Part shown: positions 1,434 through 28,956 of the stretch, piece after piece
Layout: each line of letters opens with the position of its first letter
Numbering within the stretch: the first letter of the stretch is position 1
From: a virus
Lineage: Duplodnaviria; Caudoviricetes
Strand: one strand, 5' to 3'
Virus record (IMG/VR): IMGVR_UViG_3300044274_000332
Location: 1-39,485 of that record
Length of the DNA stretch: 39,485 nucleotides
Translations under genes and position numbers: made by a program
Notes under the pieces: generated by a model
Told to the model about the DNA's origin: nothing
The model's database searches: none
Seen by the model: the letters and a program-made list of their open reading frames with translations, nothing else

Positions 1434-1681
1434 GATGCACCCACCTGGCAGCCTTCCGCCGTTGTGTTGATGGCTTCAATGCGGCTTTGGTGCTCATCCA
1501 GCGTATCCGGTACCGGGTTTGCTCGGCAGGGCGCGGCCAAGGGGCAGCAGCTGCAGCCGGCAATAGGGCCGTGCGATCGGAATTGATGCTCGCAGATAGC
1601 TTTTGCTCTCTCGCTGAGGGTAGCCATGCCCAGCTGCTGCAGGCGTTGCTCATCGGTGACCATGGTGGCTCCTGTGTTCAT
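1430..1681 (-). CDS. Hypothetical Cys-rich phage protein
   Basis: ATGA-coupled to upstream MTase stop (start 1681, MNTGATM...), CEH...CSCCPLAAPC cluster. Confidence 0.6.
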   Translation of the reverse strand: MNTGATMVTDEQRLQQLGMATLSERAKAICEHQFRSHGPIAGCSCCPLAAPCRANPVPDTLDEHQSRIEAINTTAEGCQVGAS

Positions 1682-3144
1682 GCTGCTGCCTCCATTGATT
1701 GAACCATATTTGCCTCCACCAGTGCCCGGCAGGGGTAGGGTGAGACGCTGTTGCCGCACATCTTCACTTGGTCGGCCTTGGTGAGGCGGGTGCCGTCAAA
1801 GGTGTGGGTGTGGATGTAGTCGGCCGGGAAGCCCTGGGCGGCGAACAGCTCGTGGGGCTGCAGCATGCGCATGCCGATATCCACGATTTGGTAGGGCTCG
1901 CCTTTCACCATCACCAAGCCGTAGCGGTCCCGGGTTGGAATGGTGCCGATTGGGTCGGTAATAGAATGGCCGCCGGTTTCTTTTCCGTAATACTTCATCA
2001 GGAAGGCCCGGACTTCCCCGTGGTGGGTGCCCTGGGCGCTGATGGTGTGCAGGGGCTCCCGGGCGTCGTGGCCGACGTTGCTGCCCCGCAGCTTCACCAT
2101 GTGGCTGGTCACCAAGCTGTGGTGGTCCACGGTGGTGACGGTGCCCAGGGGTTTGCGCAGGTCGGTACCGACTACGCCGGTGTAGTGTTTGGCGAGGAAG
2201 GCTTGAACCAGCTGCCCATGGTTGCCAGTAGGGACAATGGTGGGCATTGGCTTCTGAATGGATAAGGTGCGCGGGCGTTGCCCTGGGGCTTCGCTGTAGC
2301 GCGGCACCATGTACGGTATAGAAATACCGGAGCTGGTGGGCGCAATGAACGGGTCGGCTGATTCGACCACAAACCGGCGGATACCCTCGGCGATCCGGCG
2401 GCAGGTGGCGTCGGCCAGCGGGCGCTTGCGTTCGAAGATGCTGGGGCAGGGTAGGCTCCAGTCGATGATGGCCGCCGCGGTGCGGTAAGGCCTGAGTCCC
2501 GGTCCGTGGGTAGGCTTGGGCCAGGCAATGGGCTGGCCGTCGCAGCGGGCGACCAGGAACAGGCGCTTGCGGATGGTGGGGGCGCCGTAGTCGTGGGCGC
2601 GCAGTTCTTTCCACTCTACCTGGTACCCGTGGCTTCTCAGGGCGTTCACGAAGCTGCGGAAGGTGTGGCCCTTGCGCTTGGGGCAGGGAAGGTGGATCAC
2701 GCCGTCTGGGGTCTTCTTCTTGATCACGGGGCCCCAGGTGACGAACTCTTCCACGTTCTCGAGCATGATCACCCGTGGCTTTACGGTACCCACCCAGCGC
2801 ATCACTACCCAGGCCAGGCCGCGCACCTGCGGGGAAATCGGCTTGCTGCCCTTCGCCTTGCTGAAGTGGCGGCAATCCGGGCTGAACCAGGCGAGACCTA
2901 CCGGTCGGCCCTGGGTGACCTCGCGCGGATCCACATCCCACACGGATTCGCAGTAGTGCTTGGTGTGGGGGTGATTGGTTTCGTGCATGGCCAGTGCCAC
3001 CGGGTTGTGGTTGATGGCGATATCCACGGGCCGGCCAATGGCCTGCTCGATGCCGGTGCTGGCACCACCGCCGCCGGCGAAGTTGTCCACGACCAGTTCA
3101 TCGAAGTTGAAGCCGGCTTGGGGGTGGGTGCGGAAGTGGTTCAA
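1678..3144 (-). CDS. DNA cytosine-C5 methyltransferase
   Basis: Motif I DNFAGGGG, IV SPDC, VI LENVEE, VIII RKRLF, IX/X ELFAAQGFP/CGNSV; TTG start at 3144 overlaps upstream TGA and has GGAGG RBS. Confidence 0.92.
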   Translation of the reverse strand: MNHFRTHPQAGFNFDELVVDNFAGGGGASTGIEQAIGRPVDIAINHNPVALAMHETNHPHTKHYCESVWDVDPREVTQGRPVGLAWFSPDCRHFSKAKGSKPISPQVRGLAWVVMRWVGTVKPRVIMLENVEEFVTWGPVIKKKTPDGVIHLPCPKRKGHTFRSFVNALRSHGYQVEWKELRAHDYGAPTIRKRLFLVARCDGQPIAWPKPTHGPGLRPYRTAAAIIDWSLPCPSIFERKRPLADATCRRIAEGIRRFVVESADPFIAPTSSGISIPYMVPRYSEAPGQRPRTLSIQKPMPTIVPTGNHGQLVQAFLAKHYTGVVGTDLRKPLGTVTTVDHHSLVTSHMVKLRGSNVGHDAREPLHTISAQGTHHGEVRAFLMKYYGKETGGHSITDPIGTIPTRDRYGLVMVKGEPYQIVDIGMRMLQPHELFAAQGFPADYIHTHTFDGTRLTKADQVKMCGNSVSPYPCRALVEANMVQSMEAAA

Positions 3145-3485
3145 TGGGCACCTCCATTCCAGGATCGGGCCGGGTCGGAATCCCATGCCAGAAATTGGAG
3201 GAAGCTATCGAAGCTATCCTCGAATTCGCGGTATCGTTTGTAACGCTCTTTCGCTCGACGCTTGCGGGCAGGCAACTGGCGAACAGGGCCCATGCCCTGA
3301 TATTCCACGCGCCAAGTAGGGTGACAGGGATATACGGTGCCCGGTTCGTCCTCATCAAAAAGCACACCGATGTGGTGGCCGCCATCCTCGGCGATGACGC
3401 CCGGCTTACCGTTAACGACTACCCGGCGCCCTATTTCGGCAGGGACGCCATAGTAATCACGGGCGTACTTGCATGGCTTACCCAT
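3141..3485 (-). CDS. Conserved hypothetical phage protein
   Basis: Coupled in the operon; YYGVPAEIGRRV...GVIAED...HPTW pattern seen in phage early genes; GAGG RBS. Confidence 0.7.
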   Translation of the reverse strand: MGKPCKYARDYYGVPAEIGRRVVVNGKPGVIAEDGGHHIGVLFDEDEPGTVYPCHPTWRVEYQGMGPVRQLPARKRRAKERYKRYREFEDSFDSFLQFLAWDSDPARSWNGGAH

Positions 3486-3687
3486 GGTCGCTCTCACCTC
3501 CGTTATTGGCGCAATCGCTTAGCGCCGACCGGGCCCGGTCGATCATCGCATCCATCCGGTCCAGTTCTGGTTGATCACCTGGATCGGTTAGGTTGCCTTC
3601 AGCATTGGTGGAGCAGTCATAGAAGGCGTCACGCTCTGCAATGGCGAAGCGGAGAAGTTCCTGGGTGCTCTCAATTAATGCGTTCAT
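3478..3687 (-). CDS. Hypothetical protein (69 aa, MNALIEST...)
   Basis: ATGA coupling to upstream stop with GGAGG RBS; the longer 228-aa ORF call overlaps the MTase. Confidence 0.6.
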   Translation of the reverse strand: MNALIESTQELLRFAIAERDAFYDCSTNAEGNLTDPGDQPELDRMDAMIDRARSALSDCANNGGESDHG

Positions 3688-4478
3688 GCTGCCTCCCGAA
3701 GTTTGTATTCGCCGGGTTTTACTCGCTCGAAGTGTGCGCCGGCGATCTGGCGGATCTTCTCGCGCCAATGCGGGTTGTCGGTGGGGCGATTGTTTTCGAT
3801 GCAGGCATAAATCTGGGGCAGGGTCGCCTGACCACCACAGATGCGAAGGGCGGCATAGACGGTTTCGCGCCAGACTCCGGCCTTGCTGCCGTTTCCCACG
3901 AACAGCTCCCGGAATTCCCGTTTCAGCGACTCGAGTGCATGCACTTCGCTGTACAGGAACAGCCCGGACATCACTGTTTTCCGTTCCTTGGTGAAAGTGG
4001 CGAACATCAGGGGCTTGGTGATGCGCTCGAACAGATTCCGGGGCACAAGCTCCTGGGAAAGGGACCAGCGTCGGGAATAGCGCATCACTGTGCCGGCGGT
4101 CTGGAACATGTAGACCGGGAGCAGAAAGCCCACGCGGCCCTCGTACTCCAGCTGCTCGTAGCAACGGTCCAGAAAGCCATCCACCAGCGATGCCTGGAAG
4201 GGCGGGTTCCCGATCACTACCGTGGGCCGTCGCGGCAGGTCCACGGTGCAGAAGTCGCCCACAATGACCTCTCGGCCAGAGTTGGCCACGGCCAGGCCCG
4301 CCATATCCGGATCAATCTCAACGCCGTAGGCATCCACGTTTTCAGGTATGGCCATGAGGAACCGCCCGTCACCACAAGACGGCTCTGCCACAACATCACC
4401 CTGGCCCAGCTCAGGGAAGTGCCGCTTTACCAGCATTTCAGCGGCCCAGGTAGGGGTGAAATATTGGTCCAGCTTCAC
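3684..4478 (-). CDS. DNA amino-(N6-adenine/N4-cytosine) methyltransferase with C-terminal winged-helix-like domain
   Basis: DQYFTP, SAM-binding EPSCGDGRF, GVEID, catalytic GNPPF. Confidence 0.88.
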   Translation of the reverse strand: MKLDQYFTPTWAAEMLVKRHFPELGQGDVVAEPSCGDGRFLMAIPENVDAYGVEIDPDMAGLAVANSGREVIVGDFCTVDLPRRPTVVIGNPPFQASLVDGFLDRCYEQLEYEGRVGFLLPVYMFQTAGTVMRYSRRWSLSQELVPRNLFERITKPLMFATFTKERKTVMSGLFLYSEVHALESLKREFRELFVGNGSKAGVWRETVYAALRICGGQATLPQIYACIENNRPTDNPHWREKIRQIAGAHFERVKPGEYKLREAA

Positions 4479-5425
4479 GCGGCACCCCCGGGGAACTGAT
4501 CCCAGGTCCGGCCGTCCAGGAGGCGACCAGCTTTCTTCTTGCCAACACGGAACATGGGGCCATCACCTTCAGCGCAAATGCAGCCATCCACCCAGTCAGC
4601 CCAGCTATGAAATTCACCAAGCGGGGCGTCGGGCTGTTCGTCCAGCATCTGGCCAGGCACCCATTCACCCCATTGCTTAAAAAGGAATGGCACACCGGCA
4701 AACACGCACTGGTCACGCAGGTCGCGGGCCCACTCTCGATGCATTGGTCGGGCTTCGGTGCCTGACTCTCCTCCGACGATTACCCAATCAACTGCAGGCC
4801 TTACCCAGCCGGTGCCGTCTTCCTCGGAGGCCGACAGCATGGATGCCGCCATCGGGTCCATAGTGGCAAGGTCATGGTCACCCCGATGCAGCCATTCAGT
4901 GATAATCACCAGCTCCAACAGCGGTTCCATGCTCAGCCATCGAACAGCAGCAGGGGTTCCCAGTAGCTTTGGAATGTCGCGGTCGGCTTCTTGCTGGTTC
5001 ACCACCGTGGCGCCCAGCCACACATTCGGCCAGCCGTTGTCCCAGTCGCTGGGCAGCATGCCGGCGACATTTCCGATCCGCTTTGTCAGCAGCAACCAGT
5101 CTAGATTTGGGGTTTCGCTGATCAGCTTGAACAGATCGGCCCGCCATTCAGCTGGCACCTCGTTATCGAATACGTCTGCCAGGCTGGCGCAGAACACCCG
5201 GTACCGGACGCCTTTCTCTGCTGCCTGGGTGTTCCAGCGGCGGGGCTTGGCCCAGTTGGCCGGCGAAGTCCGGCGCCGTGGTGCTCCAGGGCCCCAGTTG
5301 CCGCCATGGAATCGCTTGTTGCGGGTCTCCGCGTAGCAGTGATCGCAGCCGGGACCGACCTTGGTGCAGCCTTCCCACGGATTGAAAGTGTGGTGCGCCC
5401 ACTCGATATTGGTGTTCTCTCCCAC
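4475..5425 (-). CDS. DUF5131 / phage Gp37-Gp68 family radical-SAM-like protein
   Basis: TNIEW..HTFNPWEGCTKVGPGCDHCYAE (Cx6Cx2C), SLADVFD, LLLTKR, SMEPLL, WVIVGGESG, FLFKQWG. Confidence 0.9.
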   Translation of the reverse strand: MGENTNIEWAHHTFNPWEGCTKVGPGCDHCYAETRNKRFHGGNWGPGAPRRRTSPANWAKPRRWNTQAAEKGVRYRVFCASLADVFDNEVPAEWRADLFKLISETPNLDWLLLTKRIGNVAGMLPSDWDNGWPNVWLGATVVNQQEADRDIPKLLGTPAAVRWLSMEPLLELVIITEWLHRGDHDLATMDPMAASMLSASEEDGTGWVRPAVDWVIVGGESGTEARPMHREWARDLRDQCVFAGVPFLFKQWGEWVPGQMLDEQPDAPLGEFHSWADWVDGCICAEGDGPMFRVGKKKAGRLLDGRTWDQFPGGAA

Positions 5426-22005: not shown

Positions 22006-23286
22006 ATGAGCCTTCAGGCCCTGCGCGCAGAGCGCGAGAAGAAGGTTGCGGAAATGCGCCAGATGGTCAACACGGCCGAGGCGGAAGAGCGCGACCTGAA
22101 CGAAGAGGAAGCTGGCAAGTTTGATGCCTTGCAAGCTGATGTACAGAAACTGGATGCCAGTATCTCCCGGCTGGAAAGCCTGGCGGGTATGGAAGCCGCT
22201 CTGGATGAGCCGGCGGATTCCCGTGTTGCTGGTGTTCGTGGCCATCCTGGGCGAGCTGCGGCTGCAGCGCCGAAAGAGTTTGAAAGTTTCGGTGAGTTCC
22301 TCCATGCAGTGCGCTTCAACGATGGTGACACTCGTCTTTCCGGTTTGTATGGAGAGGTGCAGGCTGCAGACGGTCAGCGTATGAGTGAGGGCGCCAGCGG
22401 CGGCTTCATGGTTCCGGATCAGTTCATGACTGGGATTATGCAAGTTGATCCCGAAGCGGCAATTGTCCGGCCGCGCGCTCGGGTGATTCCTGCTGGCAAC
22501 ATGCCTGATGCAAGTCTCTCACTAACAGCGCTGGATCAAGGCTCAGCCACCAATATGTATGGCGGGGTTGAGGTTTACCCGGTAGAGGAAGGCGGTACTA
22601 AGCCGGATACTGACGCCAAACTTCGAAATGTTCAGCTGACTCCGCAGGAAGTAGCTGCATGCGTCGAGGTAACTGACAAGTTGCTCAGGAATTGGCCGGC
22701 GGCGTCCGTGTTCATTAGCGACCTTCTCCGTGATGCGATTCGTGCTTGGGAAGATCGGCAGTTCCTGACCGGTAATGGTGTTGGCAAGCCGTTGGGGATT
22801 CTGAATTCTCCCGCGGTGATTCCTGTTGCTCGTGCAACCGCGAATGATATTACCTACGTTGATATCGTCAACATGGAAGCTGAGCTTCTCGAAGGTGGTG
22901 TGCCTGTCTGGATTATTTCTAAAAAGGCAAAAAAACGTCTGCGTCACATGAAAGATGAGGCGGGCCACCTCATCTGGCAAGACAGTGCGCGCACGGGCGA
23001 GCCGCCGCTTCTGCTTGGTATTCCCGTATTCACTACAACCCGAACGGTTGCGCTTGGTAAAAAGGGCGACATCATGCTGGCTGATCTCAAGAGCTACCTG
23101 ATCAAAGACGGTAGCGGGATCTTTGTCCAGGCTTCCGAGCATGTGAAATTCAAGCAAAACAGGACGGTCATTAAGGCCTTCTGGAATGTTGATGGGGCTC
23201 CCTGGCTGAACGGGCCAGTTAAGGGTGAAGACGATGAGCTTTACTCAGCCTTCGTGGTCTTGGATGTACCTAGCGGCTCCCCGTAA
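22006..23286 (+). CDS. Major capsid protein, HK97 fold
   Basis: N-terminal coiled-coil scaffold, GGFMVP, EGG.KP, FLTGNG..KP.GILN, LLGIPV. Confidence 0.93.
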   Translation: MSLQALRAEREKKVAEMRQMVNTAEAEERDLNEEEAGKFDALQADVQKLDASISRLESLAGMEAALDEPADSRVAGVRGHPGRAAAAAPKEFESFGEFLHAVRFNDGDTRLSGLYGEVQAADGQRMSEGASGGFMVPDQFMTGIMQVDPEAAIVRPRARVIPAGNMPDASLSLTALDQGSATNMYGGVEVYPVEEGGTKPDTDAKLRNVQLTPQEVAACVEVTDKLLRNWPAASVFISDLLRDAIRAWEDRQFLTGNGVGKPLGILNSPAVIPVARATANDITYVDIVNMEAELLEGGVPVWIISKKAKKRLRHMKDEAGHLIWQDSARTGEPPLLLGIPVFTTTRTVALGKKGDIMLADLKSYLIKDGSGIFVQASEHVKFKQNRTVIKAFWNVDGAPWLNGPVKGEDDELYSAFVVLDVPSGSP

Positions 23287-23368: not shown

Positions 23369-23767
23369 ATGAATGCAAAGCTGAGCGAAGTGCTGGGTTT
23401 CGCCCTGGCATTGGAAGGCGCCGATCTGGCGGGTGGAGCGACGACCAACTATGTCAACGTGGTTGATATTCGGCTGGTCTGTCTGGTTTTGCTGGCAGCC
23501 GCTGCTGCGGAAGATGCCACCATTACCGTTCAATTCCGTGCTGCTGAGGATGCCTCCGGCACCAATGCAGTTGATCTGGGTGGTGTTATCACCCTGACTG
23601 CCGGTGCGGGGCCGCTGAAAGTCCATGCGGATCGCGTGATTGCAGGCCTTCCGGAAGGTCTGACCTATGTGGCGGCGGTTGTCACGGCTGTAGACAGCCC
23701 GGTGCCGGCGGCATTGAACAGCGTCAGCGGCACTTTCGTACTGGGTGACCGCCGGTACAACCCGTAA
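23369..23767 (+). CDS. Putative capsid decoration/cement protein
   Basis: 132-aa beta-rich protein immediately after MCP. Confidence 0.6.
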   Translation: MNAKLSEVLGFALALEGADLAGGATTNYVNVVDIRLVCLVLLAAAAAEDATITVQFRAAEDASGTNAVDLGGVITLTAGAGPLKVHADRVIAGLPEGLTYVAAVVTAVDSPVPAALNSVSGTFVLGDRRYNP

Positions 23768-24222
23768 TGGCTGCCCAGGAATGGGTGGTGCTATCTGCCT
23801 TCAAGGATGTTGGTGGTGAGATGGTGAAGCCGGGAGCCCCAAATTGGGCCCCGGCAACGCCTGAATCTGCCGAGAAACTGAAGAAGGCTGGATGCATCAC
23901 TGAAAAGGTGGCTAGCCCTTTTCCTGGCGAGACGATGAGCGAACCGTCGTCATCGTCGCCAGCGGGCCCAGCGCCGGCGCAGTTGACCTTGAGCTCACCC
24001 GCAAGTGGCCCGTCCTTGCAGTCAACGACGCCTGGCGAATCGTCCCCTGGGCAAAAGCCCTCTACGCCTGCGACGGAGCCTGGTGGGACCACCACCGGGA
24101 AGAAGTCAGCAGGGGCTTCACAGGCCAAAGCTGGACGCAAGACAAGCGGGCGGCAGAAAGGTACGGCCTCCGGTACATCTGCAGCAAAGTCGGCGCGGGG
24201 CTCAGCCAACAGCCCGGAATAA
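23767..24222 (+). CDS. Small putative head-associated domain (~52 aa) plus Ser/Thr/Pro-rich tail (zero-frame product)
   Basis: TAATG-coupled to decoration gene; compact N-terminal domain then low-complexity tail. Confidence 0.65.
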   Translation: MAAQEWVVLSAFKDVGGEMVKPGAPNWAPATPESAEKLKKAGCITEKVASPFPGETMSEPSSSSPAGPAPAQLTLSSPASGPSLQSTTPGESSPGQKPSTPATEPGGTTTGKKSAGASQAKAGRKTSGRQKGTASGTSAAKSARGSANSPE

Positions 24223-24509
24223 TTCACCAGGGGTGCAACAGCGGTTACCAGGCAATCAACCTGGCGTGGCAGCTGGGTGCGGGGCGGTTTGTTCTGGTGG
24301 GCTTTGATTTTCGGCTCCATGAGGGAAAGCGCCATTTTTTCGGCGACCACCCGGGAGCCCTCAACAAGGCAAGCCCTTATGAGCAGTGGAAGCCGTTAAT
24401 TGAAGTGCTGGTTAACGATCTTGCTGGCCTTGGTTGCGAAGTGGTGAATTGCTCGCCATATACCGCCCTGCAGTGCATACCGGTCAGTGATCTGGAGAAA
24501 GCGCTTTGA
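23916..24509 (+). CDS. Start-less -1 frame ORF encoding a Maf/DUF115 (GT29/GT42-like Rossmann) glycosyltransferase-like domain; predicted to be made as a ~247-aa frameshift fusion with 23767
   Basis: Manual translation: TVVIVASGPS..LAVNDAW..LYACDGAWW..NSGYQAINLAWQLGA..VLVGFDF..HFFGDH..VVNCS; open 23916-24509, no ATG/GTG/TTG before 24297; slippery CCCTTTT at 23916-23922. Confidence 0.78.
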   Translation, partial: PFSWRDDERTVVIVASGPSAGAVDLELTRKWPVLAVNDAWRIVPWAKALYACDGAWWDHHREEVSRGFTGQSWTQDKRAAERYGLRYICSKVGAGLSQQPGIIHQGCNSGYQAINLAWQLGAGRFVLVGFDFRLHEGKRHFFGDHPGALNKASPYEQWKPLIEVLVNDLAGLGCEVVNCSPYTALQCIPVSDLEKAL

Positions 24510-25342
24510 TAGTCCAGGGTATGAAAGGGCTTGGTGACAACATTTACCAGCGGGCGTTTATTCGGCAGCTGGGCGATGTGCAGTTGGAGACACCCTGGCC
24601 GGAGCTCTATGAAGATTTGCCGGGGGTTTCTTTCTTGAAGATGAGCACCCCGCTGCGTACCCAGGCAAAAAACCTGGCGCGACAGCCGGCGGATCGCTGG
24701 AGCTCGCCGGAGGGGGGCTCCTCTTGCCGTGTGCATTACGGGAAAGAAGGCATTTTCCCGGGCATGGAGCGCTGTTTCGGGATTAAGCCTGGCGTCATGG
24801 ATCTGCCAGATTTCGGGCCCCCGTTGGTGTCTGGCAGGTATGCGCTGGTTCGGCCAGTGACTTTGCGACGTGAGTGGCCAGCTGCTGCCAGAAACCCCTT
24901 GCCTGAATATGTTGCAGAGGCAGCGGCCGTACTTCGTGAGTGCGGTTTTACCGTCGTTTCTGTCGCTGACCTGGTGGCAGGGGAGGAAGAGCCTGTCGGA
25001 GATCTTCCAGAAGCTGATGTGGTCTGTCACCGCGGGGAGCTCTCGGTTAAGGAGTTGCTTGGGCTGGTGCAGGGTGCCGCTGTAGTGGTTGGTGGAATTG
25101 GTTGGTTGCTACCGGCGGCAATTGCTGCAGGTGTTCACGGGTGGTTCATCTGTGGGGGCCAAGGCGGCTACAACGCGCCGGGAAATCTCACACACGAAAG
25201 CATGAATTTGAATCGGGTGCATTTTGCCGTACCCGATCACTTCTGTATGTGTACCCAGAGGGAGCACAGCTGTGACAAACGCATTGCCAGCCATCGCAGC
25301 CAGTTTGAGCGATGGCTTAGAGAGACTGGTGTGGTGGCCTGA
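24506..25342 (+). CDS. GT9-like (heptosyltransferase-like, GT-B) glycosyltransferase
   Basis: N-terminal GLGD catalytic motif; LSVKELLGLVQGAAVVVG..G..PAAIAAG C-terminal Rossmann motif; terminal Cys cluster CMC...C; TTGA coupling. Confidence 0.72.
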   Translation: MIVQGMKGLGDNIYQRAFIRQLGDVQLETPWPELYEDLPGVSFLKMSTPLRTQAKNLARQPADRWSSPEGGSSCRVHYGKEGIFPGMERCFGIKPGVMDLPDFGPPLVSGRYALVRPVTLRREWPAAARNPLPEYVAEAAAVLRECGFTVVSVADLVAGEEEPVGDLPEADVVCHRGELSVKELLGLVQGAAVVVGGIGWLLPAAIAAGVHGWFICGGQGGYNAPGNLTHESMNLNRVHFAVPDHFCMCTQREHSCDKRIASHRSQFERWLRETGVVA

Positions 25343-25934
25343 GTTGGGAATGGGTTGGCATCCTCGCGAACCCATCAGTTACGAAGGGTGTTACTGGGAG
25401 GAATATCGCCGGCGGGACGCCTCCCCGATGGGCTGTCAGCTCACAACGGCGCGGGTCGATCTTGTCCGCAAGTGGTGGGGTGGCGTCGTTGTGGATATCG
25501 GTATTGGTGGTGGGCGTTTCGTTGAGGCGGTCGGTGGCCAGGGGTTTGATGTGAATCCTGAGGCCGTCAACTGGCTAAAGAAGAAGGGTCGGTGGCGTGA
25601 TGTTTATTCTGAGCCCGTTGATGCGGTTACCTGCTGGGACTCCCTCGAGCACATCCCGGACCCCGCTGCCCTTCTGGCCCAAGTTTCACGTTGGTTGTTT
25701 GTGAGCTTGCCCATTTTCCGGGGCCCGGAACACTGCCTTCGTTCGAGACATTACAAGCCCGGCGAGCATATTTGGTACTGGACTCATTCTGGCTTCGTGG
25801 CATGGCTCTCTGATCAAGGATTTGTTATGCGAGATTGCAGCCGGATTGAGAGCCAGATTGGCCGGGAAGGCATTGTGAGCTATGTCTTTGAGCGGGCACC
25901 TGTCGGTGATGGCCGACTTCGCCAGGCGGCGTAA
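25272..25934 (+). CDS. Class I SAM-dependent methyltransferase (small-molecule/sugar type)
   Basis: VVDIGIGGG motif I, GFDVN, DAVTCWDSLEHIPDP; GGGAG RBS before GTG 25272. Confidence 0.82.
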   Translation: MTNALPAIAASLSDGLERLVWWPELGMGWHPREPISYEGCYWEEYRRRDASPMGCQLTTARVDLVRKWWGGVVVDIGIGGGRFVEAVGGQGFDVNPEAVNWLKKKGRWRDVYSEPVDAVTCWDSLEHIPDPAALLAQVSRWLFVSLPIFRGPEHCLRSRHYKPGEHIWYWTHSGFVAWLSDQGFVMRDCSRIESQIGREGIVSYVFERAPVGDGRLRQAA

Positions 25935-27761: not shown

Positions 27762-28205
27762 ATGAGCGGTGGTGAAGACGCGTTTGTAGGTAATTTCAAA
27801 CTCCGCATGGGTGATGCCGGCTCTCCGGAGCAGTTCGCAAACCTGTGTGAAGTATTCGATGTTGGCGGTGTGGGTGAAACCAGTGAACAGGTGCAGTCCA
27901 CCACGTTCTGTAACGACGGCTCCCACGTTTATATCCCGGGCCTGGCGGATGGCAACGAGGTGACGTTCTCTTCCAACATCACGCTGAATGAGAACGGCTC
28001 GCTGGATACCGACGCGGTGGCTCTCATTCAGGCCATCAAGGCCAAGGAGAGCCGGAATTTCCAGGCCGTCTTTGACAAAAACAGCCCGGTGGTGGGCTTT
28101 CAGTTCACCCTGGCGTTGTTGAGCTGGGAGCTGGTTCCCTCTGTCACCGATAAGAACACCATTAACTTCACCGGCAAAATCAGCGGTGGGGTGGAGATTA
28201 TCTAA
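27762..28205 (+). CDS. Major tail tube protein
   Basis: GDAGSPEQF, YIPGLADG.EVTF, KISG; position. Confidence 0.85.
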   Translation: MSGGEDAFVGNFKLRMGDAGSPEQFANLCEVFDVGGVGETSEQVQSTTFCNDGSHVYIPGLADGNEVTFSSNITLNENGSLDTDAVALIQAIKAKESRNFQAVFDKNSPVVGFQFTLALLSWELVPSVTDKNTINFTGKISGGVEII

Positions 28206-28543
28206 TGGCCGGGAAAACTGTTGGCAGCTTTGATGAATTCATGGCATTGGCAGCCCCTGTAATCGGCAGTGTTGAGGTCAGGGGCCGTAAGGTCCATATC
28301 CGGGAGCTGTCTGATCGGCAGCGTAAAGAGATTGCGGAAGCGAGCAAGGAAAGCCAGGAGGAATGTCTGGCGGCAGTTCTTGCCTTTGGTGTTGTTGACG
28401 GATCGGGTAATCCGTTGATGACCCGCGATCAGGCTCGAGAATATGGTTCCTCCTCGCCTGGTGTGATCCAGGAGATCAGCGAGGCAATCATGAAACTCTC
28501 CGGCATGCAGGACGAGGAGGGTGAGGACCCGGGAAAAGACTGA
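28205..28543 (+). CDS. Tail assembly chaperone (gpG-like)
   Basis: Position; ends in slippery G GGA AAA at 28531-28537. Confidence 0.85.
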   Translation: MAGKTVGSFDEFMALAAPVIGSVEVRGRKVHIRELSDRQRKEIAEASKESQEECLAAVLAFGVVDGSGNPLMTRDQAREYGSSSPGVIQEISEAIMKLSGMQDEEGEDPGKD

Positions 28544-28956
28544 GCCCAATCCAGCGTTTCAAGCATCGGTTGGCGCTGGGGTTGGGGCGAACGGTCGGTG
28601 AGCTGGAGTGTTCTCTGAGCCCTCGCGAACTGGCGGACTGGCAGGCCTACTACCTGCTGGAGCCCTGGGGGGCCTGGCGTGATAACTACCATGCAGGCCT
28701 CGTAGCGGCGCGGCTCAGTAATCTGTTCCGGGGCAAAAAAGCCAAACCGGTATCCCCTGCAGATTTTTTCTACGAATACTCCGCACCGCAAAAAAGCCAA
28801 ACAAACTGCGAATCCTTCAAGGTTTTGTTGATGGCGCTCGCGAAGGATAAATCTCATGGCAGAAGATCTGGCAAAACTGGTCCTCCGGATGGAGGCGCAG
28901 ACAGCCCAGTATCAGCGGGAACTGGAGAAATCCAGGGAGAAGCTGAACCGCATTGA
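28531..28956 (+). CDS. gpT-like -1 frameshift extension of tail assembly chaperone
   Basis: -1 frame open from slippery site: LALGLGRTVGELE..LSPRELADWQAYY..EPWG. Confidence 0.8.
   Translation, partial: GKRLSPIQRFKHRLALGLGRTVGELECSLSPRELADWQAYYLLEPWGAWRDNYHAGLVAARLSNLFRGKKAKPVSPADFFYEYSAPQKSQTNCESFKVLLMALAKDKSHGRRSGKTGPPDGGADSPVSAGTGEIQGEAEPH

Follow-up and report, generated by a model that had tools for sequence, protein, structure and literature searches.

Evidence for a −1 frameshift behind the capsid gene of HK97-type phages, predicted to fuse a small N-terminal domain to a Maf/CstII-fold enzyme

How does a phage produce an enzyme whose reading frame offers no start codon for most of its length? 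The question arises in the head module of a tailed phage (Duplodnaviria; Caudoviricetes) from IMG/VR, record IMGVR_UViG_3300044274_000332. The window, by which we mean the whole stretch of DNA analyzed (39,485 nucleotides), is a nearly complete provirus with a head module of the HK97 type. Its major head protein gene (22006..23286, + strand; phrog_10, E 2e-53) is followed by a single small gene encoding 132 amino acids (23369..23767, +; weak match to phrog_5707, E 0.006), whose product we guess to be a possible head decoration protein and whose family also precedes the frameshift site in two other loci (L182 and L209). Next comes an ORF of 151 amino acids (23767..24222, +) that comprises an N-terminal domain of ~49 residues and a 99-residue tail rich in S, G, A, P, T, and K. 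Overlapping this ORF in the −1 frame are 197 start-less codons (23916..24509, +) with a match to phrog_4603 from residue 14 onward (E 2e-45), and for the enzyme stretch behind ORF 23767–24222 gene callers give no proper gene. The best explanation overall, to which we assign a probability of about 0.8, is that one gene yields two proteins by a −1 slip and that the second of these is an enzyme fusion.

The proposed site is a slippery heptamer, C_CCU_UUU (23916..23922, +), in register with ORF 23767–24222 (0-frame codons CCT at 23917 and TTT at 23920) and inside the overlap of the two ORFs, the X_XXY_YYZ arrangement looked for in bacterial −1 frameshifting. A TAG (23913..23915, +), which is CAG in the relative L006 and hence not conserved, closes the −1 frame directly before it. 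Across nine other genes of the window, 10 of 4277 codons carry XXX(AAA/TTT)N in register, which amounts to a chance of about 2% for such a heptamer within the ~10 usable codons ahead of the enzyme's first core strand. All positions given by an earlier reading of the sequence alone (the sequence-only reading) for the TAG, CCCTTTT, the arms of a stem, and an SD-like AAGGTGG are confirmed in the DNA. Its statement that the glycosyltransferase-like frame lacks a start for 127 codons also holds, the first ATG, GTG, or TTG being the GTG at 24297, and the 247-aa fusion that it had predicted (52 + 195 aa) is reproduced under a tandem slip at the heptamer, as is its junction peptide, VASPFSWR. Absent from that reading was the continuation of the 0 frame for 99 codons past the heptamer. 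We also find separately the tail recoding site besides which it had counted this one as the second: the true tail-chaperone G/GT pair occupies 28205–28956 and contains G_GGA_AAA (28531..28537, +), where the −1 frame continues into an ORF called at 28570. In the available part of a study of E. coli assays, H_HH.U_UU.Y, the class that includes C_CCU_UUU, is among the most efficient motifs, and C_CC.A_AA.G, as found in phage D3, is the most efficient (PMC4066793).

The AlphaFold model of the −1 frame has a pLDDT of 95, and its first core strand (residues 10–14) lies inside the start-less stretch, so that initiation at the sole available start, GTG 24297, would lose two thirds of the fold. In Foldseek and VIA searches the model superimposes on Maf (5mu5) with Z 15.4, an rmsd of 2.6, and 169 aligned residues, and on Cst-I with Z 13.5 (Cst-I/II sialyltransferases, Z 11.5–13.5). 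Residues invariant in the family are G17-P18-S19 (the GPS motif), D53, W57, G129, H140, and H145. Based on the model, we predict that the −1 frame encodes a transferase of the Maf/GT42 (CstII)-like fold.

We fetched 223 homologue loci and dropped 32 of them, 18 without a detectable N-terminal motif and 14 with <330 nt upstream, which left 191 usable loci in 130 clusters at 70% identity. PACT201 was excluded from the counts; compared with D3, its record (L225:411-580) contains numerous single-base insertions that resemble sequencing error, and the region has no annotated genes. Assigned blind to slippery sites, 42 clusters form a stand-alone class, in which an ATG is no more than 30 codons from the GPS motif. 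Another 56 form a start-less class, which has no such ATG and in which an upstream ORF overlaps the enzyme frame and would have to shift by −1 to enter it; the remaining 32 fit neither class. The start-less layout is present in 99 of the 191 usable loci; 88 clusters have no ATG nearby, and to reach the enzyme from the upstream ORF takes −1 in 56 of them and +1 in 12. Homologues retain a slippery site, a check that the sequence-only reading had named: an X_XXY_YYZ heptamer is in register 8–32 codons before GPS in 34/56 start-less clusters, as against 5/56 and 5/56 in the other two registers (p 8e-9) and 5/42 among stand-alone genes (p 9e-7), p values that overstate independence because the clusters are still related. 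The excess holds when clustering is relaxed to 60, 55, and 50% identity (26/44, 20/31, and 10/15, respectively). The motifs themselves vary (AAAAAAG, CCCTTTN, AAACCCN, CCCAAAN, and others) and the register is constant; CCC TTT is found at the equivalent position in L006, L008, and L237. A later scan returned new start-less loci <75% identical to the first set, of which three of six have an in-register heptamer; a seventh (L237), missed by the motif filter and read by hand, has C_CCU_UUA.

No heptamer was found 8–32 codons upstream of GPS in the remaining 22 of the 56 start-less clusters. Two of these are in-frame fusions, six have a C_CCU and three a U_UUU tetramer, and several have nothing obvious; L018, L019, L033, L116, L132, and L182 lack a heptamer or common tetramer 8–45 codons upstream. 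Across the whole survey, 6/130 clusters and >12 database proteins join an N-domain-like part to the enzyme in frame, and the N-terminus of one such fusion (P0008) has 16/45 matches to the window N-domain (pairwise E 3e-4). On a quick tree the start-less class needs 24 changes, of which starred branches force at least 10, as opposed to a shuffled mean of 41.6, so the start-less state is clustered yet has often been switched. Moreover, many relatives have a stand-alone enzyme elsewhere (the 42 clusters above, and P1 pmgO), which indicates that the fusion is not obligatory. From a scan of viral sequences, the enzyme motif is estimated to occur in about 1500 stretches. A DNA-level search of annotated phages gave no match, and a single-sequence locus scan returned no locus.

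The layout occurs in Pseudomonas phage D3 with the heptamer C_CCA_AAG, which is kept in PMG1 and phPA-G, and in the record of Tetraselmis viridis virus S20 with C_CCU_UUG; in all phage records examined it is unannotated. The enzyme is annotated from three different codons in D3 (L001:2597), PMG1 (L226:430), and phPA-G (L227:622), and the D3 record begins it at an ATC that lies downstream of GPS. The Citrobacter phage phiNP (L002:2470-3055) contains an unannotated homologue that has neither an ATG nor an overlapping upstream ORF and that precedes a second PmgP-like gene near terS.

The 0-frame continuation past the heptamer has properties of a protein in its own right. It stays open for at least 16 codons past GPS in 52/56 start-less as compared with 16/42 stand-alone clusters, and a leucine codon after GPS that creates a 0-frame stop is found in 2/56 and 19/42, respectively. 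Set against the corresponding frame in stand-alone genes, the tail encoded by the 0 frame has an excess of K, E, and Q and a deficit of W, C, and R, with nearly no W or C, a difference between classes that is absent further downstream; its last 20 residues average a net charge of +3.8 across 52 clusters. Between the window and L006, four-fold sites have diverged at 13/38 positions in the overlap and at 23/37 beyond it (p 0.02), and divergence is lower inside the overlap in 7/10 clusters (p 0.027), although this test is modest because some stand-alone clusters are likewise less diverged near the N-terminus (few sites). Since stops are avoided in the 0 frame beyond the heptamer, both the 0-frame and the −1 products appear, from these sequence comparisons, to be under selection. 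A pseudogene or a simple mis-start would not be expected to yield such patterns in the 0 frame.

Three other origins for the broken frame have to be weighed against a ribosomal slip. An enzyme once in frame could have been interrupted by a mistake in assembly or by a recent frameshift mutation, an idea that gains something from the in-frame fusions among relatives and from the proviral nature of the record. Yet variant contigs from three other runs, belonging to other studies, cross the heptamer free of gaps with 3, 16, and 12 substitutions (X9, X10, and X13), and none has the indel at the site that the sequence-only reading had named as a possible refutation; the comparison covers contigs rather than raw reads from four runs, one of which is possibly the source itself. 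The closest other phage (L006/L007) is 82% identical to the window in the enzyme frame, and L006 has the identical heptamer, spacing, and 0-frame length and stop. Strain differences in the enzyme frame introduce no stops, and the layout recurs in the 99 loci counted above, so we regard an error or pseudogene as scarcely credible. A base lost just behind the 0-frame ATG at 23935 was considered separately as the origin of the shift and rejected because L006 has no ATG there and retains the same site and length.

Overlapping genes would be a different solution, with the enzyme translated from its own non-canonical start or by re-initiation and no fusion formed. Annotators do call two separate genes, and a GTG or TTG stands 7–30 codons before GPS in 12/56 start-less clusters, 3 with an SD word, D3 among them. 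In the window, however, none of the 16 codons that separate GPS from the TAG is an ATG, GTG, TTG, or CTG, the only near-cognate start among them being an ATC within the first core strand, and separate initiation leaves the register-specific heptamers and the in-frame fusions unexplained; we therefore consider it very improbable. The extra base might instead be supplied by RNA polymerase slippage, since A-run motifs can slip during transcription (PMC4066793, in the part available) and A-runs (AAAAAAG/A/C) make up 10/39 of the family heptamers. This too we think very improbable, and slightly more so: the window site has four T only, and CCC-TTT and CCC-AAA are tRNA re-pairing motifs whose specificity for one register is needless for a polymerase. 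We thus return to the programmed −1 frameshift claimed by the sequence-only reading, for which the gap-free variants, the site kept in homologues, and the existence of in-frame fusions all speak; the sequence evidence makes it highly probable that the slip at C_CCU_UUU is ribosomal.

The sequence-only reading had also proposed two stimulators. Stimulatory structures are expected 5–9 nt downstream of a heptamer and are optional in bacteria. The candidate 3' stem-loop (23924..23962, +) has a core in which GACGATGA (23931–38) pairs with TCATCGTC (23950–57), extended by CTGGC (23924–28) with GCCAG (23958–62). Folding of 23923–70 gives −21.8 kcal/mol and z −2.6 (3/200 shuffles equally good) and 23928–62 gives z −3.1, with longer windows weaker at z −1.4 to −2.3. 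All four members of the sub-clade with CCC TTT 16 codons before GPS keep GACGA...TCGTC, with one T-A/G-C swap, and a stand-alone relative (L009) has neither slippery site nor stem. The covariation is not significant, the lone compensatory pair being matched in 90/500 shuffles, and the closest relative, L006, has a weaker stem (z −1.1). The hairpin is thus real in the window and kept in the nearest sub-clade, but it is not enriched family-wide, the mean downstream z being −0.64 for start-less and −0.68 for stand-alone clusters. We consider the odds that the stem stimulates the slip to be about even. Between 23200 and 24600, no Rfam match comes near its gathering score, and neither promoter- nor terminator-like sites are present.

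The proposed SD-like stimulator, AAGGTGG (23905..23911, +), is kept in L006. Just 4 nt separate it from the heptamer, a smaller distance than the 6–17 nt upstream of the motif within which such elements were searched for in the available text of PMC4066793. Because of this spacing, it is probably no −1 stimulator in the window, contrary to the sequence-only reading. In other members an SD-like word lies 8–18 nt upstream in 14/34 cases, as against 67/504 background windows (13%), by a motif set that is broad and of our own choosing.

What might the shared N-terminal domain do? The upstream ORFs of the family have a common 45-residue pattern with occasional matches to DUF7210 and DUF7302 under the cut-off. 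Their main upstream neighbor is the major head gene in 48/52 start-less loci scanned, compared with 12/40 stand-alone loci. The lambda FI gene likewise follows the capsid gene, and lambda FI residues 102–130 align with the N-domain profile of the family (E 4e-4, probability 36%); Atlas leads are FI, DUF7302, and L9-N, all <0.9 (FI 0.82), and there is no Pfam match to FI (PF14000). The window N-domain is itself divergent: a profile built from the other members fails to recognize it, hhalign gives 7%, and the pLDDT of its model is 56. Searches with it found only itself and two repeat-rich chance matches, with no useful sequence match in the PDB. Its fold search returned Z 2.0–2.9, with 16 of the 21 rows short ribosome chains, one of them L9 residues 1–41, and 3 of the 21 GINS/replication proteins; FI (2LSM) is unlisted, an absence that excludes nothing. 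The C-terminal domain of FI is, in work attributed to Popovic in 2012, said to be its head-binding, L9-like part. FI is reported, in the available parts of two papers, to link terminase-bound DNA to the prohead via the major head protein (PMC7889075, PMC13595911). These sequence relationships put at even odds the reading of the N-domain as an FI-like module that binds the head, with the short product helping in DNA packaging or head assembly.

Most ribosomes on ORF 23767 thus probably read through the heptamer to make the 151-aa protein with its disordered basic tail, the putative FI-like helper, and some probably slip back one base at C_CCU_UUU to make the predicted 247-aa fusion with the Maf/CstII-fold transferase. 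Both products would start with the same small N-terminal domain, which would carry the fusion to proheads in a small fixed ratio, in line with the sub-stoichiometric level and the capsid docking suggested by the sequence-only reading. A Maf-type activity would then transfer a CMP-activated, nonulosonate-type sugar onto a virion protein, with a GT9-like enzyme and a methyltransferase as optional elaborators of that sugar. This chain, from delivery to the prohead through glycosylation of a virion protein to elaboration, we put forward tentatively, with the odds against it.

The putative elaborators are encoded directly downstream. A second glycosyltransferase-like gene of GT9-like fold (24506..25342, +; probable start 24521; phrog_6804) has an Atlas structure with TM 0.72–0.77 to PF01075 clusters, and an ORF for a SAM-dependent methyltransferase follows (25224..25934, +; start uncertain; phrog_6564, E 2e-81; PF13489), after which comes the head-tail adaptor gene. 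In 16 scanned loci the first downstream ORF, as chosen by a crude picker, is the head-tail adaptor, which suggests that the frameshifted enzyme is the core and that further transferases are optional. The phrog_6804 and phrog_6564 genes (24506–25934 in the window) travel together as a pair, and in L232 the pair apparently follows the head-closure gene instead of adjoining the frameshifted enzyme. In the early region of the window (1678–5425, − strand) there are three ORFs that we labeled by eye from motifs: 1678–3186, with what we take to be cytosine-methyltransferase-like motifs; 3684–4478, with a presumed NPPF adenine-methyltransferase-like motif; and 4475–5425, presumably radical-SAM-like.

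A frameshift can be real and its product still serve another end. The fusion could modify some other target, such as the host surface or a packaging intermediate, or its −1 portion could be a kinase-like or non-catalytic nucleotide-binding domain. Relatives of the fold at lower scores are indeed non-transferases, including archaeal HPPK/MptE, thiamine pyrophosphokinase, and SteA (Z 10.8); Pfam gives only a sub-threshold MptE-like match, and there is no useful sequence match among PDB entries or to any solved transferase. Stand-alone homologues, moreover, are found beside portal, tail, and lysis genes and as P1 pmgO. Against this, Maf and Cst lead the fold matches by 2.7–4.6 Z units, the head gene accompanies the frameshift class, and glycosyl- or methyltransferases are frequent neighbors. 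We regard a function other than virion glycosylation as a strong contender that falls somewhat short of even odds. The broader proposal, that the site is a widespread switch from an FI-like helper to a capsid-tethered Maf-type transferase and that many proteobacterial HK97-like phages, including D3, coat their heads with sialic-acid-like sugars as densely as the rate of frameshifting dictates, is doubtful and on balance unlikely.

With the −1 frameshift, the phage morphogenesis operon gains a second conserved recoding site. A common mis-annotation is accounted for as well, in which D3-like enzymes are begun at three places, some of them past the first core strand. If it is true that the enzyme modifies virions, glycosylation of phage head proteins would extend well beyond the mycobacteriophages, a prediction testable in cultured D3. 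In the literature searched, with most subscription papers outside its scope, we found no published account of a frameshift into an enzyme behind the capsid gene. The part of Antonov 2013 available shows only the tail chaperone among its phage cases (PMC3711429), and from the part of Sharma 2014 available, three unexplained prophage clusters are in its supplements, an overlap of which with the present family is possible (PMC4066793).

Comparison with known systems places the site between several of them. Like the tail chaperone G/GT of lambda-like phages, as described in the available text of PMC5009743, it has an X_XXY_YYZ heptamer, two predicted products with a common N-terminus, a shared domain that would bind one partner, and a location in a morphogenesis operon. 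Unlike the G/GT site, it is in the head module, outside the interval between major tail and tape measure genes, its extension is an enzyme fold, and it falls mid-ORF, the 0 frame continuing for 99 codons that are themselves apparently under selection. Frameshift-extended capsid and tail proteins (T7/T3 gene 10, Lactobacillus A2, and Listeria A118/A500/PSA, with Ig-like domains) similarly put an accessory domain on a fraction of a head-related protein, with in-frame and frameshifted forms coexisting among relatives, again according to the accessible portion of PMC5009743; here, in contrast, a small post-capsid gene is shifted and the added domain is Maf/Cst-like rather than Ig-like. The likeness to lambda gpFI lies in a gene placed right after the major capsid gene and in the weak N-domain profile alignment, but in the window the domain comes first and the basic tail after it, the capsid is of the HK97 type, and there is a frameshifted enzyme extension. 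The Maf flagellin glycosyltransferase (5mu5) and GT42 Cst-I/CstII have the predicted fold in common with the window enzyme, which is 14–16% identical to them and matches the central domain only. In mycobacteriophage Che8, phage glycosyltransferases are proposed to decorate the capsid protein (Freeman 2023, cited in the accessible text of PMC11256854); genes for virion glycosylation of this type are close to the genome's 3' end (reported for Maravista) and that text mentions no frameshift, whereas glycosylation by the window enzyme would be a prediction from fold and gene setting. Thus, the post-capsid site works like the G/GT and capsid-extension frameshifts but is a member of neither class, because it lies in a different gene, extends it with an enzyme fold, and retains a long 0-frame tail that appears to be selected.
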